Shown one piece after another: positions 6,840-64,000 of a stretch of DNA of 64,000 nucleotides. Source of the DNA: Candidatus Chryseobacterium colombiense (GTDB lineage: Bacteria > Bacteroidota > Bacteroidia > Flavobacteriales > Weeksellaceae). Under the pieces are notes generated by a model that was not told where the DNA came from, made no database searches, and saw only the letters and a program-made list of their open reading frames with translations. The stretch covers positions 3,626,052 to 3,690,051 of the forward strand of contig CP119310.1 in NCBI GenBank assembly GCA_029203185.1, read 5' to 3'. Both the position numbers and the translations under genes were made by a program. Position 1 is the stretch's first letter; each line of letters starts with the position of its first letter.

Positions 6840-8435
6840 ATGAAACTAAAATTGTTTTTCTTCCTGTTTTTTATAGGGGCTTTAATGTATGCTCAGAAAC
6901 CTATTTTTGTAAAAGCAAAAGTGAATGCCGTAAATGTATACCGAACATCAGCAGAATTACAAAGCTCTGTGAATGTATCATTACCGGCAGGAACATCTGA
7001 AATTGTGGTGACCAATATTTCCAATGAAATAAATGAAAGATCACTTCAAATCAATTTTAATAATAAGAATATTGCAATTCTTTCGGCTCAATATACCGAT
7101 AACTACGTCTCTGAATATGATATGGATAAAACCAATCCGAGAATCAAAAAGGCGACGGACAGTATTACTATTGTAGAAAATCTTTTAGCAAAAGCAAATA
7201 TTGAGCTGGATGCAAATAATAAAACCCTTGAACTTTTAGATAAAAATCAGACTGTTTTGGTAGGAAGTAATACTTCTAATGTTGCCCAGCTTATGCAACT
7301 TACAGACTACTACAAAAATAAAAGAGTAGAAGTAAGCGAAACGATTTCATCGATCAATAAAAAGACGAAGGAGCTACAAAAGAAATTAAACCGTTTAAAA
7401 AGCAGTCTTAAAATAAATTCTGAACTGGAAGAAAATCTATCTGATGGAGTTCTGATTTTAAAAGTAATGAGCAGTACAGCCTCAAGTACGAAGTTAGATA
7501 TTGGTTATCTTGCAGAAAGCGTTTCTTGGGAACCATTTTATGAAGTAAGAGGAAATAAGATTTCTGAGCCTTTAGATGTGACTTTTAAAGCGAAATTGAG
7601 ACAAAATACAGGATTAGACTGGAAAGGAGTAAAATTATCCCTGATTAATTCCAGATCTTCAAGAAATAATATGGCTCCTGTTCTTAGACCCTGGTTTTTA
7701 CAATCTGAAAAAAATGAAGATATTATAAATGCAGGAAGGCAAGCTTCATTTTCTGATTCGGCCAAAGAAAAAAATATTGAAGAAGTTGTGGTGGTTGGGT
7801 ATGGTGTAAGAATTATTGAGAATCAATTGAATATGAGTTTCGATGTAGATGTTCCTTACGATATTCTTTCTAATAATCAGGATCATTTTATTAATCTTAA
7901 GCAGATTAAAATACCTGCTGATTATAAATACTATACTGCACCTAAAGCTGGAAATGATGCATATTTAATTGCTACTATTAAAGATTTTAATAAATATAAT
8001 TTGATCTCAGGTTCTGCCAATGTAATTTTTGAAAATATGTTTATCGGAGAGACGAGAATTAACCCAAATCAGGTAACAGATGAATTAAATATTACACTTG
8101 GAGATGACAAAAAAATAAGTATTCGAAAAGAAATTGTCGATGATAAAGCCAGCGTAAAATTCTTTTCTTCTTATCAGGAGAAAACCTTTACTTATGATAT
8201 TGTGGTACGAAATAATAAAAAAGATGCGATTGATATTGAAATTAAAGACCAATATCCTTTAAGTAAGGATGAATCAGTTAAAATAGAATTATTACAAGCT
8301 GATAAAGCTGAAGTAGATAAAGAAAAAGGCTTTTTAACCTGGAATCTTAAAATATCTTCTAATGAAACTAAAAAAATAAGAGTAAGCTATAAAGTAAGAT
8401 ATCCGAAAGATTATTCAATCAGTAATCTTAATTAA
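6840..8435 (+). CDS. DUF4139/DUF4140 (MuiA-like) domain-containing protein
   Basis: 531 aa with a signal peptide, an N-terminal VNVYRTSAEL...L segment, a central coiled-coil and a long beta-rich C-terminus. Assigned from memory of the Bacteroidota MuiA-family layout. Confidence 0.55.
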   Translation: MKLKLFFFLFFIGALMYAQKPIFVKAKVNAVNVYRTSAELQSSVNVSLPAGTSEIVVTNISNEINERSLQINFNNKNIAILSAQYTDNYVSEYDMDKTNPRIKKATDSITIVENLLAKANIELDANNKTLELLDKNQTVLVGSNTSNVAQLMQLTDYYKNKRVEVSETISSINKKTKELQKKLNRLKSSLKINSELEENLSDGVLILKVMSSTASSTKLDIGYLAESVSWEPFYEVRGNKISEPLDVTFKAKLRQNTGLDWKGVKLSLINSRSSRNNMAPVLRPWFLQSEKNEDIINAGRQASFSDSAKEKNIEEVVVVGYGVRIIENQLNMSFDVDVPYDILSNNQDHFINLKQIKIPADYKYYTAPKAGNDAYLIATIKDFNKYNLISGSANVIFENMFIGETRINPNQVTDELNITLGDDKKISIRKEIVDDKASVKFFSSYQEKTFTYDIVVRNNKKDAIDIEIKDQYPLSKDESVKIELLQADKAEVDKEKGFLTWNLKISSNETKKIRVSYKVRYPKDYSISNLN

Positions 8436-8478: not shown

Positions 8479-9309
8479 TTGAAAAATAAAAAACCAGACT
8501 ATTCGCATCTTTCATCCAACCAGCCTATCGGTATTTTTGATAGCGGGGTAGGAGGTTTGACGGTAGCTAAAGAGATAAAAAGGCTTCTTCCTCATGAGGA
8601 TTTAATTTATTTTGGTGATACAAAACATCTTCCTTATGGTGAAAAATCTAAGGAAGCCATTATAGAATATTCTACAAAGATTACCAATTTTTTATTGGAA
8701 CAGAACTGTAAAGCGATTGTCATTGCGTGCAACACAGCAACGGCCAATGCTTTAGACCAAGTAATGCAATCTGTTGCAGGCAGAGTTCCTGTTATTGATG
8801 TTATCAACCCTGTAGCGGAAAAAGTTTCGTATGAAATCCATAATAATGTTGGAGTTATCGCGACAAAAGCTACGGTGAATTCCGGATTATACAAAAAGAG
8901 TATTCGTAAACATAATAAATGGATTAAAGTAGATGAATTGGCGACACCTTTATTGGTTCCTGCTATTGAAGAAGGCTTTAAAAACCATCCGATTACCCAT
9001 GCTATTATCTATAATTACTTAAGCAATAGCAAGCTGAAAAATATTGAAACGCTGATTCTAGGATGTACTCATTATCCTTTATTGATCGATGAAATCAAAC
9101 AGTATTATGGAAACCGTGTTCGTGTGATTGATTCACCGAATATTGTGGCGAATCATTTAAAAATTATTTTAGATAAATATAATCTTTTAAATGAAAACAA
9201 TCCGAAGCCTAATTATCACTTCTACTTATCTGACCTGACTAAAAATTTCGAAAAAATCTCAAAGAAATTCTTCGGGAAAACAATAGATCTGGAACTGAAA
9301 GTATTATAA
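8479..9309 (+). CDS. murI: glutamate racemase
   Basis: 276 aa with IGIFDSGVGGLTV, IACNTATA and LGCTHYPLL (the two catalytic Cys motifs). Confidence 0.95.
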   Translation: MKNKKPDYSHLSSNQPIGIFDSGVGGLTVAKEIKRLLPHEDLIYFGDTKHLPYGEKSKEAIIEYSTKITNFLLEQNCKAIVIACNTATANALDQVMQSVAGRVPVIDVINPVAEKVSYEIHNNVGVIATKATVNSGLYKKSIRKHNKWIKVDELATPLLVPAIEEGFKNHPITHAIIYNYLSNSKLKNIETLILGCTHYPLLIDEIKQYYGNRVRVIDSPNIVANHLKIILDKYNLLNENNPKPNYHFYLSDLTKNFEKISKKFFGKTIDLELKVL

Positions 9310-9310
9310 A

Positions 9311-9342
9311 TAAAAAAAGACTCAAAAAAGAGTCTTTTTTTT
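9311..9342. terminator. bidirectional terminator between murI and the nitroreductase gene
   Basis: A-run, then AGACTC (9318-9323), loop, GAGTCT (9330-9335), then a T-run. The flanking genes are convergent. Confidence 0.6.
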
Positions 9343-9344
9343 AT

Positions 9345-9947
9345 TTATATCTCAAGAATGACTTCTTGTTTTTCATGTCTTGTTTTGGGAGTAATGGTCG
9401 GCTGATTGCTGTCTTCTTCAGCTCTTAGACCAATGGTAACCGCAAATAGAGTTTCATACTTTTCATTGTTTAAAATAGTGTCATACTTTTCTGGTTCAAT
9501 TCCTTCCATTGGTGTAGAATCTATTCCCATTTCTGCACATGCTGAAAGGAAGACTCCCAATGAAAGGTAAACCTGATGACCCAGCCATGATTTTATGGCA
9601 GCATTGCCCTTCGGTTTTACAAAATTTTTATAATAATTCACACTTCCTTCAGGAAGATAACCTTCAATCTTATTTTCAAAATCATCAGGGTTTTTCATGA
9701 CCTGAAATACAATTAAATAATTGCTGTCCAAAACTTTTTCCTTGTTCCAGTAAGAGGCTTCTGCCAAAGGTTGCTTTAAATCGGAAAAATTATTTACAAA
9801 AATAAAATTCCATGGCTGACTGTTGATAGAGGAAGGACTTAGCTGTAAAATGTCTTTTAACTGCTGAATTTTTTCTTCACTTATTGTTCCTTGAGGATTA
9901 TACTTTTTCACAGTATATCTCGATTTCATTTTTTCTAAAAAGCTCAT
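9345..9947 (-). CDS. nitroreductase-family NAD(P)H-dependent oxidoreductase
   Basis: 200 aa. RYTVKKYNPQG...LSPSSINSQPWNFIFV is typical of the nitroreductase fold family. Confidence 0.85.
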   Translation of the reverse strand: MSFLEKMKSRYTVKKYNPQGTISEEKIQQLKDILQLSPSSINSQPWNFIFVNNFSDLKQPLAEASYWNKEKVLDSNYLIVFQVMKNPDDFENKIEGYLPEGSVNYYKNFVKPKGNAAIKSWLGHQVYLSLGVFLSACAEMGIDSTPMEGIEPEKYDTILNNEKYETLFAVTIGLRAEEDSNQPTITPKTRHEKQEVILEI

Positions 9948-9974
9948 AATTTTATACTATATTTTTTATAGTTG

Positions 9975-9982
9975 CAAAACTA
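9975..9982 (-). promoter_or_regulatory. -7 box TAGTTTTG for the nitroreductase gene
   Basis: The plus strand reads CAAAACTA. It lies 28 nt upstream of the ATG at 9947. Confidence 0.4.
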
Positions 9983-9994
9983 ATTTAAGTTTAA

Positions 9995-10002
9995 TACATT
10001 TG
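9995..10002 (+). promoter_or_regulatory. -7 box TACATTTG for the HxlR-family regulator
   Basis: Exact TAnnTTTG 30 nt upstream of the ATG at 10032, divergent from the nitroreductase promoter. Confidence 0.4.
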
Positions 10003-10031
10003 CAATAACGGTAAAAAAGGATAGTATAAAA

Positions 10032-10370
10032 ATGTATACAATAGATAATAAAGTATATCCGTGTTGTACAAGTGTTACCATGCGGTTTATTGGAGGAAAA
10101 TGGAAAGCGGTAATTCTGGTCCATCTGAAGAATGGTCCCAAAAGATACAATGAAGTGAGAAAATTGATTCCCACGATTACAGAAAGAACATTAAGCCTAC
10201 AACTGAAGCAATTAGAAGAAGACCATATTATTGATCGAAAGGTTTTTACAGAAAAACCGCCGCTAATGGTAGAATATACATTGACGGATTTTGGGAAAAC
10301 ATTACTTCCTGTTTTGGAAGAAATTACAAAATGGGGAATTGAAGCTTCTGAAAGATTCAAAAAAAAATAA
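10032..10370 (+). CDS. HxlR-family winged-helix transcriptional regulator
   Basis: 112 aa. IGGKWKAVILVHLKNGPKRYNEVRKLIPTITERTLSLQLKQLEEDHII is the HxlR signature. Pairing divergently with a nitroreductase gene is a common arrangement. Confidence 0.9.
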   Translation: MYTIDNKVYPCCTSVTMRFIGGKWKAVILVHLKNGPKRYNEVRKLIPTITERTLSLQLKQLEEDHIIDRKVFTEKPPLMVEYTLTDFGKTLLPVLEEITKWGIEASERFKKK

Positions 10371-10387
10371 TCAAGAAAAAATCCTGA

Positions 10388-10966
10388 TTATTCTGTTATT
10401 TCTGTAGTCGCTTCCTGATTAGGTTTAAAAAAGCTGAAGCTTACGTTTCCGTATTTTCGGGTATCCATTAAATTCGGATGGTCAAATTTCATTCGGCTTT
10501 GATGCTCCACGATCAGTATGCCGTTTTCTTTTAGATATTTATTGTTTAATACTAAAGAAATCAATTCGTGGTATTTTTTTTCTTCCATTTCGAAAGGGGC
10601 GTCAGAAAATACGACCTCAAATGACTTTTTATTTCTAAACTTCTTTAGCCAGTCAAAAACATCCCCTCTCTGAACGTTAACCTGTAAGCTAAATCCTAAT
10701 TCAGAAGCTGTGGAATTCAGAAAGCTGGTGTGTTTGGGATTCATTTCTACAGAAGTAATGTCCTGACATCCTCTGGAAGCAAATTCAAAGGTTATAGAGC
10801 CAATTCCTGCGAATAAATCCAGCACGGAAACCGACTGCATATCATATGTATTTTCCAAAATACTGAATAGCGCCTCTTTTGCAAAATCCGTTGTTGGTCT
10901 TACATCAAAATTTTTCGGAGCGGCTATTTTTTTAGCTTTCCATTTTCCCGAGATGATTCTGTACAT
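10388..10966 (-). CDS. rsmD: 16S rRNA (guanine966-N2)-methyltransferase RsmD
   Basis: MYRIISGKWKAKKI..RPTTDFAKEALFSIL..VLDLFAGIGSITFEFASRG. Start moved to the internal Met (10966), which gives the usual family length. Confidence 0.85.
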   Translation of the reverse strand: MYRIISGKWKAKKIAAPKNFDVRPTTDFAKEALFSILENTYDMQSVSVLDLFAGIGSITFEFASRGCQDITSVEMNPKHTSFLNSTASELGFSLQVNVQRGDVFDWLKKFRNKKSFEVVFSDAPFEMEEKKYHELISLVLNNKYLKENGILIVEHQSRMKFDHPNLMDTRKYGNVSFSFFKPNQEATTEITE

Positions 10967-11038
10967 ATTATGGTAGGTTTTAAGTTGTAGATCGTAGGTA
11001 ACAGGTATACTAAACACATGTTATCTGGTTACTGCAAC

Positions 11039-11755
11039 CTAATTTAAAATAAAATTTTTATTAGGAATATTATCAAAAACGATTTTCAGATTCTTTACAA
11101 ACTTTTGTAATTCTGAAATAAAGGTTTCATTCTCTGTGGTTTCACCGTAGGCAAAAAAGCTGGTTTCATTAATTCCAAAACCTATTTTACTTAAAGTGAA
11201 CATCACAAAATAAAGAAAATCAACTTCTGAATTGACATCCAGATTATTATATAAGATGATTTTTTTATCATCAATAGCAAAAAACTCACACTGATTATGG
11301 TATAGGTTGATGTGAATTTCTTTATTGCTTTTATTATGAATAGCATTTAAAAACTTTTCCCCTGAAAAATTAAAATGAACAGGTATCCCTAGACTCTTTA
11401 TTTTCTGATAAAAATGTTTTGGAAAAGTGTAATAAAACTGAACCTTGAATTTTTTATTGACAGAAAGCATAAGCTCTTCGTTATCCTTATCAACAGGAGC
11501 GTTAAAAGCAATTAAGTCAAATCCTGCATCATGCTCAGAAAATCCTTCCGGCATTAAAGTAAAGTGATTCAAGGCTGAAATTACCTGAATTTCATCAAAT
11601 TTTTGTTTACCCAACACTTCATCCAGTTTATGTGAGATGAAATTTTCCGGAGTTTCTTCGTCTACGAAATAAGATTTTTCTTCCACAATGCTTTTATTTC
11701 TAGCAATTTGGAAGATCAGTCCGTCTTTGGTAAAAAGTAAATTAAGTACGTTCAT
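11039..11755 (-). CDS. DUF3822 family protein
   Basis: 238 aa. Assigned from the conserved Flavobacteriia position next to rsmD and from the size. The call rests on memory, not on a motif. Confidence 0.5.
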   Translation of the reverse strand: MNVLNLLFTKDGLIFQIARNKSIVEEKSYFVDEETPENFISHKLDEVLGKQKFDEIQVISALNHFTLMPEGFSEHDAGFDLIAFNAPVDKDNEELMLSVNKKFKVQFYYTFPKHFYQKIKSLGIPVHFNFSGEKFLNAIHNKSNKEIHINLYHNQCEFFAIDDKKIILYNNLDVNSEVDFLYFVMFTLSKIGFGINETSFFAYGETTENETFISELQKFVKNLKIVFDNIPNKNFILN

Positions 11756-57522: not shown

Positions 57523-57596
57523 AGGTCCTATAGCTCAGTTGGTTAGAGCACCTGACTCATAATCAGGTGGTCCCTGGTTCGAGCCCAGGTGGGACC
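57523..57596 (+). tRNA. tRNA with CAT anticodon (elongator Met or lysidine-modified Ile2)
   Basis: Hand-folded 74-nt cloverleaf. Acceptor GGTCCTA/TGGGACC, D-stem GCTC/GAGC, anticodon stem CCTGA/TCAGG with loop CTCATAA, T-arm CCTGG-TTCGAGC-CCAGG. The G1-C72 pair and the absence of a GGG/CCC anticodon stem argue against an initiator. Confidence 0.9.
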
Positions 57597-57608
57597 ACTT
57601 TTTAAATC

Positions 57609-57639
57609 AAGCACTTACAGAAATGTAGGTGCTTTTTTT
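57609..57639 (+). terminator. hairpin/terminator after the tRNA
   Basis: AAGCACTTAC (57609-57618) pairs with GTAGGTGCTT (57625-57634) with one G-U pair, followed by a T-run. Confidence 0.55.
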
Positions 57640-57796
57640 GTGCTTTATTCTTTATTTTAGGGTGTTGTAGTATTGTCTTAATTACTACAATTCAATTTGT
57701 TCTATATAATCAGATGTATAGAATGCTTATTAAAAGGTGTCCTATTAGGTGTCCCACTTCTACTTTTTGGTGACCCATTTTCTAAAATTTAAATCA

Positions 57797-59005
57797 ATGA
57801 ATAACAATAAATTATCAATACTTTTTCTATTGCAGAAAGCAAAAGTGAATCAACAAGGAAAGTGTCCTCTCAGATGTAGGATTACATTTCAACAAGACAG
57901 AAAAGAGTTTTCTGTAGGATTATTCATAAACCCCAATTACTGGAATAGCAAACAGCAGAAAGCTAAACCACCCAATGATGAAAGTATTTTTATCAACTCT
58001 CAATTAAGCCTGATTAAAAATGAAATTAATCAGGCTTTTTTATTTCTACAGGTCAGTAGCAGTGATTTTAATATTGAAGATATTTATTCACAATACAAGG
58101 GACATGCTCCTAAAAAAGATAAAAGTATAATCCAGCTTTTTCAAGAGCATAACGAAAGAGTTGAAAAATTGGTAGGGAAGGAGTATTCTATAGCAACCTT
58201 ATGGAAATTCAAACAGGCAAAAGAGTTATTAAAAGACTTTCTTAAATCTTATTTCAACAAAGCTGATTATCATTTCAAAGATTTAAACTTGAAATTTATT
58301 CAGGATTATGAGTTTTACTTGAAGACAGAAAAGTCTTTAGCTATTGTTACTACGAATAAAATGATACAGAGATTCAGGAAGATTGTAAAGATAGCTATAT
58401 CTCAAGATATTATATACAAGGAACCATTTATTAACTATAGAGTTAAACATATAAAGAAAGAAATTATTTATTTAACGAAGGAAGAATTAGCTAAAATTGA
58501 AGATTACCAATTTAAAGCTGAAAGATTACAAATGATTGCTGATATGTTTGTATTTTGTTGTTATACTGGGTTAGCTTATAATGAAATGGTTAATCTTGAA
58601 AAGTCTCACATTGTAAAAGGTCTAGATGATAATGAATGGATAAATATGATGAGAGAGAAAACTCATAATATGTTATCAATACCTTTGCTTACTAAGGCTA
58701 AGAAGATAATTGAAAAATATGATTATGTCGATAACAAACGAGTTTTACCTAAGTTCAGTAATCAGAAGTTTAATTCTTACCTTAAAGAAATAGCAGACAT
58801 TGTTGATATTGAGAAAAGATTAACTCACCATTTAGCAAGAAGAACCTTTGCTACAACTGTATTGCTCTTTAATGATGTTCCAATGGAAATAGTGTCAGAA
58901 CTTTTAGGGCATTCTAAGATTGGTATTACTCAACAGCATTATGCAAAGGTTGTTAAAAAGAAGGTTGGGGAGCAGATGAGTAAGTTAAATTCTAAGCTGA
59001 AATAG
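57797..59005 (+). CDS. site-specific tyrosine recombinase (phage-type integrase, Bacteroidota Arm-DNA-binding type)
   Basis: The N-terminal LSILFLLQKAKVNQQGKCPLRCRITF is the typical Bacteroidota integrase opening. The catalytic region has HHLARRTFAT and LLGHSKIGITQQHYAKV (R...HxxR...H...Y). Start moved to the ATG at 57797. Confidence 0.9.
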   Translation: MNNNKLSILFLLQKAKVNQQGKCPLRCRITFQQDRKEFSVGLFINPNYWNSKQQKAKPPNDESIFINSQLSLIKNEINQAFLFLQVSSSDFNIEDIYSQYKGHAPKKDKSIIQLFQEHNERVEKLVGKEYSIATLWKFKQAKELLKDFLKSYFNKADYHFKDLNLKFIQDYEFYLKTEKSLAIVTTNKMIQRFRKIVKIAISQDIIYKEPFINYRVKHIKKEIIYLTKEELAKIEDYQFKAERLQMIADMFVFCCYTGLAYNEMVNLEKSHIVKGLDDNEWINMMREKTHNMLSIPLLTKAKKIIEKYDYVDNKRVLPKFSNQKFNSYLKEIADIVDIEKRLTHHLARRTFATTVLLFNDVPMEIVSELLGHSKIGITQQHYAKVVKKKVGEQMSKLNSKLK

Positions 59006-59054
59006 CCTGATATTAAATGCTTTGTAGTAAATTTACAAGTCAGTTTATAAGATT

Positions 59055-61484
59055 ATGTATAAAAAACTACTAACAGTTGAAAACACTCCAATTCAGTACA
59101 AGGAAATCAGACCTACTGACTTTGAAGGCTATAATATTTCTGATGAAGATTTAATAATAATCAAGGAAGATGAAAAAGGATATATCTCTGATTTTCTTGG
59201 ATCAAACATTGATTTAAGCATTAAAGATACAACAGTCATCAATGCAAGTGTTGGGCAGGGTAAGACAACAGCATTGGTAGACATGGTTAAAAGATACCAT
59301 CAGGATAACAATTACATGGTTTTGTTAGTTTCTCCTTTTAAGTCTTTGCTTGACCAATATTATTCATCATTACTTAGTAAGGGCATTCCTTACAAAGACA
59401 TATTCGACTATAGAGCTTTAGAAGATGAGAATTTCGATGATGAAAACTCTGACCCTATTAATAGAAGAATACAGCTTATAACCTTTAATTTCCTACTTGG
59501 AAATTCAGGAGAAACTTATCTGAAGCAGTCTTCTAAAAAGACTGAGTTTATAGATGAAATACTGGGGAAATGCAAAGAAGAGAACAGAAAGGTTGTTCTC
59601 ATTTTTGATGAGGTACATGATGCTATTCACAATTTCAAAGAAGAGTTAGTATTCAATCTGTTCAGGTGGAGGAAATATGTACACAAAATCTTTGTATCAA
59701 GTGCAACTTATAATGAAGCTTCAAAAGTAGTAATCAAGTATTTTGCAGAGCTTACTGACAGGAAGATTAAAATATTCGAGTCTCTAAGAAAGCAAGATGA
59801 AGACAATCTTAGTGAGCTTAATGTTATGATATATGACCACAGCACCTATGATGTTGATAATATTAATCTGATTAATCTTTTCAGGAGTGAGATTGGTAAG
59901 GCTTCTAAAATTAATATTTTGACTTACACCAAGGCACTTACAGACAGATTAAGTAAGAGTATAATAGGTAAAGAAATCAGGAAATCTTATGGAGATATTA
60001 ATATCTGTACTTCTGATACTGGAAATATTTTTGATGATTCCAAATGTAATATGGGAACTAACTTTAAGACTGGAATAAGTATCAATAAGAAAGATACAGC
60101 CTATTTTATATTTCTACCACAGAAAAGGTCTTATGAAAAGTTACCTGGGGAGTTGGGCGTTTTTACAGAAGGCATTAATACCTTAATCCAAGCCTTGGCA
60201 AGACCAAGAGAGAAAGCAAGAATTTATGTGATAACACCCAATGTTACTAGTGTATTAGTAACGTCAAATGACCCAATACCAAAGTCCAATGCTATAATCA
60301 ACATCAACAAACAAGATAGGCTCCTAAGGTTGTTCTATGACCAGACCAAAGAAAAACTTAAGGAAGAAATTGGATATTTTGAAGATGGGCATACTTTGAT
60401 TAATGCAAGGTTTCCTGACTATGACCAATTTAAGCTGTCTCAAGGTGAGAAGTATTTTAGGGTCTATTTTGATGCCTTTGGAAAGAATCTTTCTAACTAC
60501 TTCAACTGGGCTGCAAGAAATAATCAGTTTGTTAACTGTAAACTTAAGTATCTCTTTAAGCTTGATCTGGAAATAGAAGAAGGTAAGATGTTACAAGGTA
60601 TTAAGGATTATTTTAACTCAGCTTTTTATGAGAGTGAGATGTTTAGATACCTTTCTCCATCAGAGCAGTATCAACAACTTAGAGAATCTATTTTTTCAAA
60701 TTATGTAACTATTAAATCAAAAGATAACAGTATTAAAGAGCTCAAACCTTATGGTAAAGTAGAATTTGAAAAGAATATAATTAAGTTTATTCAGCAATAC
60801 AACAGTCCTATCCCATACTTGGAAGACTATCTAGGTATTAATTATGAGAACTATGTTGATACAATGAGCCATAAGGAAACAATAGACACTATAGAAAAAT
60901 TAGAGCCTCATAAGAAGACTGCCCTATTAAACTATAAGCATTACAAACAAGATGATTATGTAATTTCTACTGAAGAATACATCAGAAGTTCCATGTACTT
61001 TGCTAAGAATACTTCTTTAAAAACAGAAACAATTTCAAAGAATGAGGACAGTTTAATCTACCTGTATTCAAAACTATATGACTTTAAGGATACTTTGACA
61101 AGTTATCTCAAGAGCAATGCTAATGGACAAGTAATACTACCCCAAGACAAGGATTTTAAATTCAACAGCACTGATTTCAGTTACCTGGAAAGCTTAATTG
61201 ATAGGTTGAAACAACATGACCCCACTCTTAAAAATGTTTTCAATTTTATGCAGACTGGTATTAGTGAGAAAAAGGTTTATAGTCTTTTGAAAAAACTGTA
61301 TTTCGAAACAGACAGAACAAGTATAAACTCAGGCTCAGGTAAACAGACTTACATTAAAAGGGATATTACAGATGATGAGCATGGAAAGACCAACTTAATT
61401 TACAAACACATTGATTTTGTCAGCTTAGTGAAAAGCTATCAGGAAGAGTATACAAAGGAGTACCTGGAGGCTAAAGAAGACTAA
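59055..61484 (+). CDS. SF2 helicase-like protein with about 400 aa of unassigned C-terminal region
   Basis: 809 aa. Motif I SVGQGKTT, Ia LLVSPFKSL, II IFDEVHD (DExH), III SSATY, and a VI-like QALARPRE. The C-terminal half has no motif I recognise. Confidence 0.6.
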   Translation: MYKKLLTVENTPIQYKEIRPTDFEGYNISDEDLIIIKEDEKGYISDFLGSNIDLSIKDTTVINASVGQGKTTALVDMVKRYHQDNNYMVLLVSPFKSLLDQYYSSLLSKGIPYKDIFDYRALEDENFDDENSDPINRRIQLITFNFLLGNSGETYLKQSSKKTEFIDEILGKCKEENRKVVLIFDEVHDAIHNFKEELVFNLFRWRKYVHKIFVSSATYNEASKVVIKYFAELTDRKIKIFESLRKQDEDNLSELNVMIYDHSTYDVDNINLINLFRSEIGKASKINILTYTKALTDRLSKSIIGKEIRKSYGDINICTSDTGNIFDDSKCNMGTNFKTGISINKKDTAYFIFLPQKRSYEKLPGELGVFTEGINTLIQALARPREKARIYVITPNVTSVLVTSNDPIPKSNAIININKQDRLLRLFYDQTKEKLKEEIGYFEDGHTLINARFPDYDQFKLSQGEKYFRVYFDAFGKNLSNYFNWAARNNQFVNCKLKYLFKLDLEIEEGKMLQGIKDYFNSAFYESEMFRYLSPSEQYQQLRESIFSNYVTIKSKDNSIKELKPYGKVEFEKNIIKFIQQYNSPIPYLEDYLGINYENYVDTMSHKETIDTIEKLEPHKKTALLNYKHYKQDDYVISTEEYIRSSMYFAKNTSLKTETISKNEDSLIYLYSKLYDFKDTLTSYLKSNANGQVILPQDKDFKFNSTDFSYLESLIDRLKQHDPTLKNVFNFMQTGISEKKVYSLLKKLYFETDRTSINSGSGKQTYIKRDITDDEHGKTNLIYKHIDFVSLVKSYQEEYTKEYLEAKED

Positions 61485-61558
61485 CATAATTAAGGACAAA
61501 ATATAATCCTACTTCTATAAGGTACAGGGTAAATTTTGTCCTTATTCTGAAAAAATTC

Positions 61559-61596
61559 AGCCAACCTACAATTCAGTAAGGTTGGCTTCTTTATTT
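61559..61596 (+). terminator. hairpin/terminator after the helicase-like gene
   Basis: AGCCAACCT (61559-61567) pairs with AGGTTGGCT (61579-61587), followed by TCTTTATTT. It is preceded by a second long-loop inverted repeat, AAGGACAAAAT (61492-61502) with ATTTTGTCCTT (61532-61542). Confidence 0.45.
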
Positions 61597-61700
61597 GCAA
61601 CACAGCAAAAACACTTTAAAGTTTACACCTTAGGAACTCTATAAAAAGAAATCTTATAGAAGTTTCAAATTAATCTTAACAATTTTAAATACAAAATATT

Positions 61701-62618
61701 ATGCAATTAAAACAGTCACAAAGACAACAAGTAAAGCTCAGATTAGGATTATCAGGAGCTAGTGGATTTGGAAAGACCAAATCAGCTTTATTATTAGCCT
61801 ATGGAATGACACAGGACTGGAATAAAATAGCAGTCATAGACACAGAAAACTCCTCAGCTTCCCTGTATTCTGACCTGGGTAGCTATAAGGTGTTGGACTT
61901 ACAAGCTCCTTATTCACCAGAAAGATATATACAAGCTATAGAATTGTGTGAAAAGTCAGGAATTGAAGTCATTATCATAGATTCAGCCAGCCATGAATGG
62001 AATGGTTCTGGTGGATGTCTTGAAATACATGAGAAACTAGGTGGTAGGTTTCAGGATTGGGCTAATGTAACTCCAAGACATCAAGCGTTCATCAACAAGA
62101 TATTACAGTCAAGCTGTCATATCATTACCACTACAAGAAGGAAGATGGACTATTCTTTAGATATTGGTTCTAATGGTAAAACAAAAGTAGTCAAACATGG
62201 AACCAAAGAAATCACTAGGGATGGCTTTGAATACGAATTAACTATCAACTTCGAATTAATTAATGATAATCATTTGGCTAAAGCAAGTAAGGATAGAACA
62301 GGGCTGTTCATGAATAAACCTGAGTTTTTGATAACCCCTCAAACTGGTAAGGTGATTCTTGACTGGTGTAATGCAGGAACAATTAACCAAGCCCAGGTAA
62401 CCCCTTCTATGCCTAAACAAAGTTACCTGGGCACTAATGAGATTAACGCTCTAATTAATAAAATAGGAGACTGTAATGCAATTAGTGACCTTTTAGCTCT
62501 TTACAAACAATATCCCCAATATCAGGAAGAGTTAAAGCCTGAATATGAAGCCAGAAAATCATTTTTAATCAAACTGTCTAACCCACAAAACTTTTCAACT
62601 AATGGAGTACACAGATAA
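61701..62618 (+). CDS. AAA_24-type (Sak4-like) phage/element ATPase
   Basis: 305 aa with Walker A GASGFGKT, VIDTENS, and Walker B VIIIDSASHEW. Confidence 0.7.
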   Translation: MQLKQSQRQQVKLRLGLSGASGFGKTKSALLLAYGMTQDWNKIAVIDTENSSASLYSDLGSYKVLDLQAPYSPERYIQAIELCEKSGIEVIIIDSASHEWNGSGGCLEIHEKLGGRFQDWANVTPRHQAFINKILQSSCHIITTTRRKMDYSLDIGSNGKTKVVKHGTKEITRDGFEYELTINFELINDNHLAKASKDRTGLFMNKPEFLITPQTGKVILDWCNAGTINQAQVTPSMPKQSYLGTNEINALINKIGDCNAISDLLALYKQYPQYQEELKPEYEARKSFLIKLSNPQNFSTNGVHR

Positions 62619-63729
62619 TACAGCAGTAATGGAACTGCACAATGTTCAAAGAAGCAGTCACCTTAACCTGGAGGCTGTAAATATCCAAGAGGCAGAGGTC
62701 TTTTATCCAAGCAGAATGAATGAAATTAAGGAGGTTGAACCAAGAAGTGTTCAGCCTCTTTTGATTTCTAATGCAGTCAATACTATCATTAGCACAACAG
62801 GCTCTACCTATGTTCATAAACCTTTTATTGAAGCTAATACCTTACAGGTAGATTTAAATCATCTTAAAAGTGAGTGTATTATTCCTGTATTTAGTAAGGA
62901 CAATGAAAAGACCATTGCTCACCAAGAGTTTATAGAGATTGTTATTAATACAGTGTTGAAACTGTTTCCTCACCATAGTATCAGTAATCCTGAAATAAGG
63001 GTGTCACATCAAATAAAAGGCAGAACTCCTGATGCTATCTATAAAAGTGCTAAGGAATTATTAGACCATGAGAAGACCATTTACTATGAAAGAATGGCTT
63101 TTATTATTCAAATACCATCTATTGTAGATACTATCAATGGTAATGAATTAGCTCTTACTTTGGGAGGAGTAAGAAGTTATAACCTGGAGAACCTTTACAA
63201 CAAGAAAACCTTTGAAAAATTCAAGTTCTTCATTGGCTTTCAAAATAAGGTTTGCTGTAATTTATGTGTTAGTTTTGATGGTTTTGTAGAAGAAATGAGA
63301 GTTGGAAATTATCGTGAACTACAGGAGAAAATTACTCATGTGATTCAAAACTACAATGCAGAAAGCCACCTGGAGGTTATGAAATCTTTATCTCATAGTC
63401 ACCTTACAGAACATCAATTTGCCCAGCTCTTAGGTAGGTCAAGGTTATACCAACATCTATCCAAAAAGGAGAAATTGGTAATTCCAAGTCTGAACTTTAA
63501 TGACAGTCAGCTTAATACAGTTGCAAAAGACTATTACGAAGATGAAAGCTTTTGCAGGAATGAAGATGGAAACATTAGCCTATGGAATGTGTATAATCTC
63601 TTTACACAGGCTAATAAGAGTAGTTATATAGATACTTTCCTTGACAGGAACTTGAATGCTTTTGAATTCTCAAGAGGTATACAGAAAGTACATAATGGTG
63701 ATAATAAGTACCATTGGTTTTTAAGTTAG
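62602..63729 (+). CDS. DUF3871/DUF932-like mobile-element protein
   Basis: 375 aa. It overlaps the upstream ATPase gene by 17 nt. The family is assigned only from memory of Bacteroidota element gene order (AAA ATPase followed by DUF3871). No catalytic motif is recognised. Confidence 0.4.
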   Translation: MEYTDNTAVMELHNVQRSSHLNLEAVNIQEAEVFYPSRMNEIKEVEPRSVQPLLISNAVNTIISTTGSTYVHKPFIEANTLQVDLNHLKSECIIPVFSKDNEKTIAHQEFIEIVINTVLKLFPHHSISNPEIRVSHQIKGRTPDAIYKSAKELLDHEKTIYYERMAFIIQIPSIVDTINGNELALTLGGVRSYNLENLYNKKTFEKFKFFIGFQNKVCCNLCVSFDGFVEEMRVGNYRELQEKITHVIQNYNAESHLEVMKSLSHSHLTEHQFAQLLGRSRLYQHLSKKEKLVIPSLNFNDSQLNTVAKDYYEDESFCRNEDGNISLWNVYNLFTQANKSSYIDTFLDRNLNAFEFSRGIQKVHNGDNKYHWFLS

Positions 63730-63734
63730 TTTTT

Positions 63735-63760
63735 TATAGCCACTGATTTAAGTGGCTATA
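63735..63760. other. 10-bp-stem hairpin between convergent element genes
   Basis: TATAGCCACT (63735-63744) pairs with AGTGGCTATA (63751-63760). It overlaps the stop codon of the minus-strand partial ORF. There is no clean U-tract on either side. Confidence 0.4.
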
Positions 63761-63998
63761 ATTCTACTGTATAGATCCAAAATCTAGAAATTCCTTGGGA
63801 TGTTTCTTTTTCATATCCTTCACAAAAAGGGAATATTATACTTGCAGGTTTATCCAAGCATTCTTTCACATAATACAAAGCAACACCTAATGTTTGGGCT
63901 TTGCTTGAGAGTGGGCTTAAATATAAATTTGTTATTTGTTTGTGTGAATTAATTTTTGCGATTGTCTTACTTAGTAAAGATGCTGTTACAAATGGATC
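63756..63998 (-). CDS. hypothetical protein, C-terminal 80 codons only (N-terminus outside the window)
   Basis: Own translation of the minus strand: ...DPFVTASLLSKTIAKINSHKQITNLYLSPLSSKAQTLGVALYYVKECLDKPASIIFPFCEGYEKETSQGISRFWIYTVEL, with the stop at 63758-63756. The frame is open to the window edge. Confidence 0.35.
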   Translation of the reverse strand, partial: DPFVTASLLSKTIAKINSHKQITNLYLSPLSSKAQTLGVALYYVKECLDKPASIIFPFCEGYEKETSQGISRFWIYTVEL

Positions 63999-64000
63999 AT

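Follow-up and report, generated by a model that had tools for sequence, protein, structure and literature searches.

At the right-hand end of the window (the whole 64,000-nucleotide stretch of the Candidatus Chryseobacterium colombiense chromosome that was analysed), housekeeping genes for an FtsX/MacB-like permease, RbfA and a glyoxalase end at a tRNA gene, raising the question of what kind of element follows it. A preliminary description had proposed a discrete integrative element at the 3' end of this tRNA, with only its integrase-proximal arm inside the window and its cargo past position 64000, and had left its type open between a satellite, a cryptic phage-like replicon and a defence island.

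A repeat-bounded island in the 3' end of a tRNA gene

Reading beyond the window end located the downstream repeat of the tRNA 3' end that the description had suggested searching for. The element is 15,548 bp long and bounded by a 66-bp direct repeat (repeat family D1), whose two copies are 98% identical and lie 15,548 bp apart. Coordinates past 64000 are given as window equivalents (genome C1 coordinate minus 3,626,051); those of locus L001 are window coordinates minus 57000.

57524..57598, + strand: tRNA with CAT anticodon, the integration target (ARAGORN: tRNA-Met; Rfam tRNA)
57573..57638, + strand: attL, 66-bp direct repeat comprising the final 26 nt of the tRNA and the terminator hairpin
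57736..57776, + strand: three GGTGWCCY words just 5' of the integrase ATG
57797..59005, + strand: tyrosine integrase, 402 aa (reading frame open from GTG at 57749)
70128-70370 (window-equivalent), - strand: XRE-type HTH
70454-71056 (window-equivalent), + strand: tm200
71068-71352 (window-equivalent), + strand: o94
71359-71736 (window-equivalent), + strand: tm125
71795-72154 (window-equivalent), + strand: o119
72161-72562 (window-equivalent), + strand: o133
73121-73186 (window-equivalent, outside the window): attR, partner of attL with one mismatch
from 73302 (window-equivalent): chromosomal DUF4861 gene, right flank past attR

The target tRNA stays intact, being rebuilt by the insertion. It is probably tRNA-Ile2 rather than tRNA-Met, a reading reached by elimination among the three kinds of CAT tRNA in the genome (four genes: the initiator in two copies, one elongator-like tRNA and the target). 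The GC content of the element (30.4%) and its cargo (26.7%) compares with 35.1% for the genome. The related genome G080 has the exact empty site, in which glyoxalase, tRNA, terminator, DUF4861 and pectate lyase follow one another with a single repeat copy, and this was the only contiguous empty site among 240 genus genomes. In the genus genomes read downstream of this tRNA, the genes that follow it and their order vary, and several relatives carry repeat-bounded elements of their own. The gene of the right flank, when a relative has it, is mostly found at another place. The locus is a discrete site-specific integrative island in the 3' end of a CAT-anticodon tRNA.

Its gene order is integrase, 809-aa helicase, AAA_24, DUF3871, cargo, o123, XRE repressor, small membrane proteins and RadC. 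The reading frame is uninterrupted in each of the 16 annotated genes, and catalytic motifs were intact in the five checked. Capsid, conjugation and relaxase families had no match in any ORF of the whole element, extending the absence of capsid, conjugation and mobilisation genes described for the left arm, and no primase or polymerase gene is encoded in the element.

The integrase combines Arm-DNA-bind_5, SAM_5 and Phage_integrase domains; the first two together are typical of Bacteroidota CTn/NBU-type integrases. Its start is most likely the ATG at 57797, giving 402 aa as in relatives, and not the GTG at 57749. The only three GGTGWCCY matches in 19 kb, all at 57736-57776, compare with 0.64 expected by chance (3/200 shuffles also gave three). 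Similar GGTGTCC repeats precede int in the tRNA-Val element on L060/L061, and the words may serve as arm-type sites for the integrase or as int operators.

A UL9-like helicase and phage-related core genes

Searches of the ORFs for domains bore out the earlier account of the integrase, the 809-aa SF2 helicase, the AAA_24 ATPase and the overlapping 375-aa DUF3871 protein.

59055..61484, + strand: UL9-like SF2 helicase, 809 aa (motif I VGQGKTT, motif II DEVH)
61493..61542, no strand: 50-nt imperfect palindrome AGGACAAAAT...ATTTTGTCCT, 9 nt past the helicase stop codon
61558..61587, + strand: terminator-like hairpin CAGCCAACCT...AGGTTGGCT between the palindrome and the AAA_24 leader (read from sequences)
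61701..62618, + strand: AAA_24 (Sak4-like, RecA-fold) ATPase, 305 aa (Walker A GASGFGKT; phrog_1366, E 3e-77)
62602..63729, + strand: DUF3871 protein, 375 aa (DUF3871, E 6e-147)
69402-69773 (window-equivalent), + strand: o123
69838-69887 (window-equivalent): second palindrome with the same arms as the first, after o123
72588-73034 (window-equivalent), + strand: RadC/JAB

In Pfam the helicase matches DEAD/ResIII, with Herpes_ori_bp just below threshold (18.2 bits, cut-off 20). When its AF2 model (pLDDT 90) was searched against the PDB with Foldseek, the top four hits were all HSV-1 UL9 in complex with OriS, the alignment covering the full length (E 6e-11). Sequence identity was ~11%, and the global TM-score was ~0.3 with the high rmsd that a multi-domain protein would be expected to give. 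Like UL9, it is an SF2 protein of ~800-850 aa whose motor is N-terminal and whose C-terminal domain is large (PMC12543377, PMC3632103), here a C-terminal half of ~400 aa. UL9 is a virus gene and the present helicase belongs to a bacterial integrative island; phages with UL9-like helicases are already known (T5 D2; PMC12543377, PMC3632103). Helicase homologues were absent from PLSDB plasmids. We propose the 809-aa protein as a replication initiator.

The UL9 binding site consists of inverted boxes with an A+T-rich spacer between them (PMC12543377), and each helicase gene here has a palindrome directly 3', a putative binding site. A palindrome of 45-52 nt lies within ~10 nt 3' of every type-A helicase gene examined, its arms vary with helicase type across elements, and the one at 61493-61542 may be an origin or helicase binding site. 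However, the palindrome abuts the helicase gene and would be co-inherited with it whether or not they are functionally related, so that the association may reflect linkage only, and the second palindrome, conserved regardless of helicase type, fits a simple cognate-site model poorly. The ~150 nt past the palindrome are conserved in type 1 and type 2 elements, both of which keep the hairpin at 61558-61587.

The AAA_24 protein matches phrog_1366 and Sak4-like families and is present in 417 phage records. Its gene is overlapped by 17 nt by that for DUF3871, for which disorder is predicted over the ~68 N-terminal residues and whose fold is that of DUF932/TIGR03299 (structure search against BFVD, probability 1.0, E down to 3e-8). 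For o123 there was no family and no solved-structure match. AAA_24, DUF3871 and RadC form one operon in phage-like IMG/VR contigs of 28-65 kb, four of them without a tyrosine integrase, and in L076 tail and endolysin genes are 7-9 kb away from this operon. These DUF3871-bearing contigs are linear and metagenomic with the trio near one end, and some could be composites of a prophage and an adjacent island. Judged by these matches, the core genes of the island family appear to be phage-related.

Cargo, relatives and closest known systems

The cargo is a four-gene operon spanning 63756-68931, largely past 64000 as had been anticipated. The ORF at the window end, earlier described as convergent and unknown, is indeed convergent, and is now recognised as the CARF-like last gene of this operon (324 aa).

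63756-64730, - strand: CARF-like stand-alone protein, 324 aa, last cargo gene (3' end, 63756..64000, inside the window)
64736-66721 (window-equivalent), - strand: ORC/Cdc6-like ATPase
66663-67607 (window-equivalent), - strand: PRTase-CE
67600-68931 (window-equivalent), - strand: amino-DNA methyltransferase

Catalytic motifs of the cargo are intact, and an identically ordered set of these four genes is present in a Vicinamibacterales MAG (Acidobacteriota) at 29-38% identity. The PRTase (Pfam PRTase-CE) matches PADLOC PRTase_III-A models, and PRTases of this family or type serve as proven or proposed defence effectors in type III-A retrons (Retron-Eco11), ShosTA, PsyrTA and Ophion (PMC12746101; bioRxiv 10.1101/2025.09.30.679545). 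Unlike those systems, the cargo has no reverse transcriptase, ncRNA, DprA-like antitoxin, radical-SAM or PHP partner; the PRTase is instead accompanied by a DNA methylase, an ORC/Cdc6-like ATPase and a stand-alone CARF-like protein, a combination for which we found no experimental report in the literature. Its slot position, family names and guilt by association make the operon a candidate anti-phage system.

Nine related elements keep the backbone: five in genomes G002, G004 and G005 and IMG/VR record G256, three distinct elements from metagenomes (contigs L051-L054 and L060-L063), and a second element in the same genome, which lies at tRNA-Ser(GGA) between the copies of a perfect 77-bp repeat. 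In 8/9 relatives the cargo includes defence genes, known or candidate, and the set differs from one relative to the next (Upx; Tmn; Septu-like PDC-M62; bSEFIR; McrBC-like and type II REases; Dcm and Vsr; SIR2/PDC-S25; PDC-M65; Abi_2 with type I RM; SIR2 and Hachiman; SNF2, MTase and UvrD/PD-(D/E)XK; and an 877-aa protein with a weak HSDR_N match only). The cargo of the tRNA-Ser element is less clearly defensive (by Pfam scan only, a SIR2_2 protein, an AAA_17 kinase-like protein and weak PIN and ASCH matches). The interval from DUF3871 to o123 is thereby identified as a slot for cargo. AAA_24 and DUF3871 are 87-97% identical across elements, integrases 56-79% and helicases 33-87%, and in type-B elements genes of the DUF3987 primase-helicase type and HTH_17 (Xis/AlpA-like) replace the UL9-like helicase. 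Integrase targets were read for two classes, CAT tRNA and tRNA-Val. Integrase, helicase, core and cargo are separately reassorting modules.

At 11 distant Bacteroidota loci, DUF3871 adjoins AAA_24 in 9, o123 in 7 and RadC in 6; the 20 kb fetched includes a tRNA or tmRNA at 8 of these loci, and at 5 there is a homologue of the integrase. The island family is phylum-wide in Bacteroidota, its core being a tyrosine integrase, AAA_24, DUF3871, o123 and a short RadC/JAB protein; we found no published description of it. Tandem arrays with partial tRNAs between elements occur in G005 and G256, and in the latter a true prophage also occupies this att site with the same 42-bp att core, beyond which prophage and elements have no DNA in common. 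Metagenomic contig L061 contains an internal RadC-attP-int junction; placed on the map of that element, its two ends are separated by 33 bp. A circular B. finegoldii record of 15.5 kb, typed non-mobilizable, carries DUF3871 and two integrases with no annotated rep or mob gene. DUF3871 fragments adjoin or lie near the target tRNA in G021 and G008, and in L054 the helicase is split into two ORFs.

Among known systems, E. coli K-12 CP4-57 also sits at a small-RNA gene, which we take to be the tmRNA gene ssrA, just downstream of smpB. It has Int, AlpA and DUF3987 (YfjI) as in type-B relatives, defence cargo (AbpAB, RnlAB) without virion genes as in the family, and, like the element, a DUF932 protein (YfjQ) and a short RadC-like protein (LfgB, 38% identical to the element RadC). 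The resemblance of DUF3871 to DUF932 is at fold level only, the profile comparison with YfjQ giving no significant match; CP4-57 lacks the AAA_24 gene and UL9-like helicase, whereas the element lacks its KlcA/ArdB-type antirestriction gene and CbtA/CbeA toxin-antitoxin pair. Riemerella belongs to the same family as Chryseobacterium, Weeksellaceae. The 10K island of R. anatipestifer is likewise small, beside a tRNA and bounded by an att of tRNA 3' end plus terminator; experiments showed that its IntN1-like integrase and 53-bp att suffice for integration and excision, and the excised circle is detectable (PMC6764341). However, its target is tRNA-Arg, and its annotated genes (Fic, AntA/AntB-like, hypotheticals) show no visible AAA_24, DUF3871 or helicase when compared by annotation (PMC6764341).

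Tycheposons, which belong to another phylum, also combine a tRNA-specific tyrosine recombinase, genes for autonomous replication (helicase or primase) and a cargo module, and form tandem elements with partial tRNA copies between them; their integrase class sets the target tRNA, and cargo-carrying and satellite-like variants share modules (bioRxiv 10.1101/2020.12.28.424599). The tycheposon gene labels read do not include the AAA_24/DUF932-like/o123/RadC core or the UL9-like initiator, and the cargo described is mostly for nutrient acquisition, compared to candidate defence here. The present family is not known to be enriched in vesicles or capsids.

Mobility and mode of life

Taken as a whole, the locus is quite likely a defence-carrying integrative island of a phage-related Bacteroidota family that operates as set out at the end of this section. 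The choice of types left open by the preliminary description narrows to a defence-carrying, phage-related island, probably one with a replication module. A phage satellite of the PICI, P4 or PICMI kind, kept silent by XRE until infection by, or induction of, a helper phage and then excised, replicated by its own UL9-like initiator and packaged in helper capsids, is conceivable but rather doubtful. Its expected integrase, repressor, replication-type helicase and cargo are present and structural genes absent, the tandem arrays adjoin a complete prophage using the same 42-bp att core, core genes are common to phage-like contigs, and minimal satellites without capsid genes, like defence cargo in satellite hotspots, are established. 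However, terS, a capsid-remodelling gene, an AlpA-type activator and an antirepressor were not recognised in the element, no cos- or pac-like DNA is common to the elements and the neighbouring prophage of G256, and searches gave no viral contig of element size with terminal repeats, IMG/VR records being only proviral or linear. Some tycheposons are PICI-like (bioRxiv 10.1101/2020.12.28.424599).

Conjugative spread as an integrative mobilizable element, with transfer machinery borrowed from a co-resident conjugative element, would make AAA_24, the DUF932-like protein, o123 and RadC leading-region functions that both protect and establish incoming single-stranded DNA, and is improbable. Gene types such as DUF932, RadC and antirestriction genes do occur in plasmid and ICE leading regions, and CP4-57 groups all three, its LfgB being the RadC relative noted above. 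The Arm-DNA-bind_5 and SAM_5 build and the IntN1-like Riemerella integrase (PMC6764341) also favour it. Yet relaxase, Mob and coupling-protein families were unmatched in any ORF, oriT was not recognised, the circular B. finegoldii relative is typed non-mobilizable, and the core trio lies near tail and lysis genes in phage-like contigs, which points to phages, not conjugation. Very improbable is a decayed, immobile prophage or island remnant gathering defence genes by hotspot recombination. The DUF3871 fragments, the split helicase, the varied post-tRNA gene order, the scarcity of contiguous empty sites and the annotation of CP4-57 as a cryptic prophage would suit such a remnant, but the uninterrupted genes, intact motifs, near-perfect 66-bp and perfect 77-bp att repeats and attP-type junction in a metagenomic contig would not, and recent movement with exchange of modules is needed to explain a backbone that is 87-97% identical between elements differing in integrase, tRNA target and cargo.

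For the favoured defence-carrying island, we infer that the integrase would excise the element as a circle through attL x attR recombination and that the UL9-like helicase would bind the palindrome just past its own gene and start replication of that circle. AAA_24, DUF3871, o123 and RadC may form a phage-type DNA recombination or establishment module, and the XRE repressor would hold the element quiescent. Our best guess for cell-to-cell transfer is a phage-linked route, by hitchhiking or transduction. In the cargo, the methylase may mark self DNA, the ORC-like ATPase and CARF-like protein may sense, and the PRTase may be the effector, so that the cargo would shield the host, and hence the island, from phages or plasmids.

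Borders and gene content of the island at the CAT tRNA

The preliminary description had housekeeping genes ending at a tRNA gene and a discrete integrative element starting at its 3' end, and both points held. Upstream lie genes for an FtsX/MacB-like permease, RbfA and a glyoxalase, followed by the single tRNA of the 64-kb window (ARAGORN), which carries a CAT anticodon. The window (C1:3626052-3690051) forms part of a single-contig 4.23-Mb genome, and the suggested search for the tRNA end was extended past position 64000 (higher positions continue the window's numbering). The tRNA 3' end recurs once downstream, 15,548 bp away, as part of a 66-bp direct repeat with one mismatch that comprises the last 26 nt of the tRNA and a terminator hairpin; the second copy (attR) is located at 73121-73186, so that the repeat marks both borders. 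Comparison with relatives lacking the insertion, also suggested previously, identified an empty site. Among 240 Chryseobacterium genomes searched, the site was unoccupied in one (G080), in which glyoxalase (96%), tRNA, terminator, DUF4861 (88%) and pectate lyase (95%) are found together with a single repeat copy. The GC content was 30.4% for the element and 26.7% for its cargo, against 35.1% for the genome.

The order of genes 3' of the CAT tRNA varied among the Chryseobacterium genomes in which the downstream region was read, and several carried a second copy of the tRNA end ~19-45 kb downstream of the same tRNA, suggesting that this site is an integration hotspot. The pattern held earlier to speak against a discrete element, i.e. 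the same genes after this tRNA in all relatives and no repeat, was therefore not what we found. In G001, the distance between the tRNA and DUF4861/pectate lyase is 20.7 kb (loci L031/L032), which represents a different insertion at the same hotspot; a second tRNA-end copy and the family backbone genes were looked for in this insertion and neither was found. Short DUF3871 fragments were also observed ~100 nt (G021, locus L019) and ~16.5 kb (G008, locus L026) after the same tRNA, with no repeat-bounded element there; these are probably scars of decayed islands. The other CAT tRNAs in the genome are the initiator (two copies) and one elongator-like tRNA (C1:3546035, C1 being this genome's contig), so by elimination the target is probably the lysidine-modified tRNA-Ile2 rather than tRNA-Met. 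C4 and C5 are present in its acceptor stem. If the target is tRNA-Ile2, the island occupies a single-copy essential tRNA gene.

Features of the island and its target tRNA (position, strand, description)
57524-57598, +, tRNA with CAT anticodon
57797-59005, +, tyrosine integrase (int; Arm-DNA-bind_5, Phage_int_SAM_5 and Phage_integrase)
59055-61484, +, UL9-like SF2 helicase, 809 aa (DEAD/ResIII; Herpes_ori_bp just below cut-off)
61701-62618, +, AAA_24, Sak4-like ATPase
62602-63729, +, DUF3871 protein (E 6e-147) with a predicted DUF932 fold
63756-68931, -, cargo operon of four genes
69402-69773, +, o123, without known family
70128-70370, -, XRE-type HTH protein
70454-72562, +, five small ORFs, three apparently hydrophobic (by eye)
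72588-73034, +, RadC/JAB protein, 148 aa
73121-73186, n/a, attR, second copy of the 66-bp repeat

The integrase gene begins ~200 nt 3' of the tRNA; judged by its relatives, translation probably starts from ATG 57797, giving a product of 402 aa. All ORFs initially listed after the tRNA were re-found, namely the integrase, the 809-aa helicase, the AAA_24 ATPase, the DUF3871 gene (overlapping the ATPase gene, as described, by 17 nt) and the convergent ORF leaving the window. The latter belongs to the four-gene cargo operon, which lies mostly past the window end, where cargo had been anticipated; the element is a mobile integrative island with cargo beyond 64000. Likewise, the reported absence of capsid, conjugation and mobilisation genes was borne out, as none of the submitted ORFs matched a capsid, terminase, relaxase or conjugation family in Pfam, PHROGs or NCBIfam. 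The Rfam scan returned nothing besides the tRNA. Promoter matches were close to the expectation from shuffled sequence (95 vs 86) and terminator-like sites were enriched (12 vs 5.3 expected), although they pointed to nothing further.

A shared backbone with a variable cargo slot

Nine relatives were compared. These comprised elements at the same tRNA in three genomes (G002, G004, G005), two tandem elements in an IMG/VR record (G256), three distinct metagenomic elements (contigs L051-L054 and L060-L063) and a second family member in the same genome. Genes for the integrase, AAA_24, DUF3871, o123 and RadC were common to all nine, and the XRE gene was present in most. The stretch between DUF3871 and o123 differed in each relative, and in the eight from other genomes it held known or candidate defence genes. 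Its contents included Upx; Tmn; Septu-like PDC-M62; bSEFIR; McrBC-like and type II restriction enzymes with Dcm and Vsr; SIR2/PDC-S25 and PDC-M65; Abi_2 with a type I RM system; SIR2 with Hachiman; SNF2, MTase and UvrD/PD-(D/E)XK; and an 877-aa protein with a weak HSDR_N match only. Separately, the G005 element is variable in a second region, located right of XRE, which contains a 278-aa PRTase-CE homologue (L015:1278-2114) preceded by a 575-aa ORF spanning the L014/L015 boundary; this may be another PRTase-based system.

The second member in the same genome is inserted at tRNA-Ser(GGA) (C1 ~3,859,396-3,877,923; L058 597-19124), bordered by a 77-bp direct repeat whose two copies match perfectly and lie 18,451 bp apart, and has the same gene order. 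Identities to the window element were 52% (integrase), 39% (helicase), 55% (AAA_24) and 63% (DUF3871). Its cargo, including a 1016-aa SIR2_2 protein, an AAA_17 kinase-like protein and weak PIN-like and ASCH matches (Pfam scan alone), is less clearly defensive than that of the other eight relatives.

The left end of the elements occurs in two forms. Type A, to which the window element belongs, has int followed by a helicase of 800-850 aa, whilst type B has DUF6617, HTH_17 (Xis/AlpA-like), a 141-aa ORF and DUF3987, all before int. AAA_24 and DUF3871 were 87-97% identical across our element, the UVa element and those on L052, L054, L062 and L063. Integrases fell into classes of 79% (CAT tRNA), 57% (tRNA-Val(TAC)) and 56% (L052/L054) identity, with targets known for the first two. 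The helicase types (84-87%, 71% and 33-40% identity) did not follow these integrase classes while AAA_24 and DUF3871 stayed at 87-97%, demonstrating that the modules reassort. Across the phylum, DUF3871 was sporadic (17/401 evenly drawn genomes, 13/179 genera). At 11 distant DUF3871 loci (20 kb fetched), AAA_24 was a neighbour in 9/11, o123 in 7/11 and RadC in 6/11, a tRNA or tmRNA was present in eight and an integrase homologue in five; none had the helicase.

Cargo proteins of the window element (all on the - strand)
amino-methyltransferase, 443 aa (MTase_II, 1.6e-45)
PRTase-CE, 314 aa (PF24390, 1.5e-62)
ORC-CDC6-like ATPase, 661 aa (PF24389, 1e-122)
CARF-like protein, 324 aa (PADLOC CARF6, 1e-95)

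The four cargo genes are adjacent and co-oriented (gaps of -8, -59 and +5 nt), and motifs of the methylase (DPFCGSG and SPPY), the ATPase (GSKGSGKT) and the PRTase (IFIDDICGSG) are intact. The same four genes occur in the same order, at 29-38% identity, in a Vicinamibacterales MAG (L056); the ORC-like protein as a single query retrieved only two genome loci. Because the slot occupied by the operon mostly contains defence systems in other elements, this association supports a candidate defence role. Type III-A retrons are accompanied by effectors of the PRTase-CE family (PMC13712802), Retron-Eco11 (type III-A3) has a PRTase-like effector (PMC12746101), and defence PRTases act in ShosTA, PsyrTA and Ophion (bioRxiv 10.1101/2025.09.30.679545). 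A type III-A retron was considered for the PRTase and rejected, since RT and msr/msd ncRNA were absent: no cargo or element ORF matched an RT family and Rfam detected no ncRNA. The cargo also contained no nuclease. Our literature search for an MTase/PRTase-CE/ORC/CARF cassette returned no experimental report, only passing mentions of PRTase with CARF and ORC, and that for CARF6 returned no relevant paper.

The UL9-like helicase, associated palindromes and core proteins

The helicase was modelled from 71 homologues (pLDDT 90, pTM 0.87). Its best four PDB matches were all structures of HSV-1 UL9 in complex with OriS; the alignments span the full length (844-929 columns including gaps), with E ~6e-11 and a global TM of only ~0.3. 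The SF2 motifs VGQGKTT and DEVH are intact. Pfam Herpes_ori_bp scored 18.2 bits, below the gathering cut-off of 20, and the helicase had no PDB match by sequence and no plasmid homologue in PLSDB. UL9 binds inverted boxes that flank an A+T-rich spacer (PMC12543377), and UL9-like helicases are known from phages, e.g. T5 D2 (PMC3632103). Within one relative (L054 1497-4111), the helicase is split into ORFs of 588 aa and 272 aa, reflecting a frameshift, a pseudogene or an assembly error.

An imperfect palindrome of 45-52 nt begins no more than ~10 nt after every type-A helicase gene examined, with an A+T-rich centre in elements carrying helicase types 2 and 3. In elements with types 1 and 2, it is followed by a conserved terminator hairpin and the AAA_24 leader. 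The palindrome arms are kept within a helicase type and differ between types. This co-variation fits cognate initiator-origin pairs from which the island may replicate, but plain linkage predicts the same pattern. A second palindrome, at 69838-69887 after o123 (12838-12887 on L001, the extracted locus of this element), has the same arms as the helicase-proximal copy at 61493-61542, so that two 50-nt palindromes bracket the segment from AAA_24 to o123. However, the o123-proximal copy is near-identical across all of the type-A relatives regardless of helicase type, and only the helicase-proximal copy varies. A simple two-site cognate model is therefore unsupported, and the palindromes were rejected as module boundaries or a universal origin, since only one of them tracks the helicase. 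Possible roles for the o123-proximal copy are those of operator, terminator or second cis site.

The DUF3871 model has a well-defined core (pLDDT >95) after ~68 disordered N-terminal residues. Foldseek against BFVD gave matches with probability 1.0, E of 3e-8 to 6e-4 and TM up to 0.52/0.67, among them phage proteins named DUF932, TIGR03299 and DUF945; on this model, DUF3871 is predicted to share its fold with named DUF932 proteins. It had no solved-structure relative in the PDB, either by sequence or by fold. Alignment of the DUF3871 family (A2) to E. coli YfjQ as a single sequence with hhalign gave no significant similarity (probability 0.9%, E 0.06), and the literature search for DUF3871 returned an unrelated mention only. 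AAA_24 strongly matches phrog_1366, and the gut-phage homologue encoded on contig L076 has matches to Sak4-like annealing proteins as well. No match to o123 was found in Pfam, PHROG or NCBIfam, nor by profile search of PDB sequences. The RadC protein is 38% identical to LfgB of E. coli CP4-57. To our knowledge, DUF932 and short RadC proteins are common in mobile elements and unexplained there.

Phage links, classification and significance

Several of these genes are linked to phages. The 86-kb G256 record runs from an element end through att, a 45.5-kb prophage, att, an element and att to another element (att cores at 7225, 52719 and 70344; L046-L048, L034, L035), placing a prophage and at least three islands in tandem at one shared tRNA att site. 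The prophage is complete (terminase, portal, tape measure, O-like initiator, RecE-like exonuclease) and has no DNA in common with the elements beyond the 42-bp att core. DUF3871 was also present in ten gut IMG/VR contigs, six of which (28-65 kb, CheckV completeness 53-100%) lack a tyrosine integrase. In five gut contigs of 28-65 kb (L076-L080), AAA_24, DUF3871 and RadC form a single operon; four of the five have no integrase and the fifth, L077, was classed as a provirus. The L076 operon (9154-11556) lies 7-9 kb from genes for a tail protein and an endolysin, and its DUF3871 is 99% identical to that of MT839478, a GenBank scaffold named 'Bacteriophage sp.'. The trio operon in phage-like contigs shows that the AAA_24-DUF3871-RadC core is shared with phages, although some of the DUF3871 contigs may combine a prophage with an island next to it.

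Two further records bear on possible excision among relatives. The 13.7-kb contig L061 (ERZ1741875 NODE_1670) has an internal attP-type junction of RadC, partial tRNA-Val and int, and when it is placed on the L062 map its two ends are separated by 33 bp, meaning that the same tRNA-Val element was recovered in two circular permutations. Such a pattern points to either a free circle or a tandem array in the sample. NZ_OY725960.1 (L075), the circular 15.5-kb 'plasmid 58' of B. finegoldii, carries DUF3871, two site-specific integrases, HTH genes, an Eco57I-type RM gene and a serine recombinase; its annotation lists no replication or mobilisation genes, and it could represent an integrative element that had excised and was then deposited as a plasmid. 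For an island of Riemerella, both integration and excision require no more than an IntN1-like integrase and a 53-bp att that is built in the same way (PMC6764341). For the window element, integration, membership of the family, the cargo slot and the exchange of modules are shown, whereas excision, replication from the palindrome, the functions of the core proteins, defence by the cargo and the means of transfer are inferred.

The main rival to a phage-related, defence-carrying integrative island, or else a refinement of it, is a phage satellite (PICI, P4-like or PICMI). No helper-exploiting family (terS, capsid remodelling, cos/pac site or helper-responsive derepression) was detected in any ORF with Pfam and PHROG, although the small unknown ORFs could hide such genes, and the att sequence is all that the islands share with the adjacent G256 prophage. 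An integrative mobilizable, NBU-like element is disfavoured by the lack of any relaxase/Mob family in the Pfam, PHROGs and NCBIfam scans of the submitted ORFs. The phage-related island is closest in concept to tycheposons and CP4-57-type islands. Tycheposons similarly combine replication genes and cargo in a tRNA-specific integrase element, with tandem arrays split by partial tRNAs. CP4-57-like islands share a DUF932-fold protein and a short RadC-like protein on an integrase-bearing island with candidate defence cargo, CP4-57 itself carrying Int, AlpA, DUF3987, defence cargo, DUF932 and RadC. In contrast, AlpA, DUF3987, an antirestriction gene and a CbtA/CbeA-type toxin-antitoxin pair are absent here, and HTH_17 with DUF3987 occurs only in the type-B relatives. 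The AAA_24/o123 core and the UL9-like initiator distinguish the element from both groups.

More tentatively, these islands may form a class of their own, namely phage-derived 'defence shuttles' of Bacteroidota that replicate themselves, a proposal that as a whole we consider less likely than not. After excision by the integrase only, the UL9-type helicase, interchangeable with the DUF3987 primase-helicase, would fire a cognate palindromic origin. AAA_24, DUF932-fold DUF3871, o123 and RadC would process DNA for packaging or for establishment after transfer, and the carriers would be phages using the same tRNA att site. Independently of these steps, the cargo would represent a new immune system that is gated by methylation and works without a nuclease.

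If this proposal is true, the islands would be a new kind of satellite without recognisable helper-exploitation genes and would provide the first testable role for DUF932 and short RadC proteins. The backbone places a UL9-like, putatively origin-binding helicase in a bacterial island, and the cargo, a conserved, nuclease-free methylase/PRTase/ORC-like/CARF cassette, is a candidate immune system. The integrase and its 66-bp att could also serve as a single-copy integration tool for Chryseobacterium, an approach already taken in Riemerella. Defence systems are less well charted in Bacteroidota than in Proteobacteria. Compact islands with a fixed slot would be a vehicle explaining the spread of such systems in Bacteroidota, and new ones may be found by reading the DUF3871-o123 interval.
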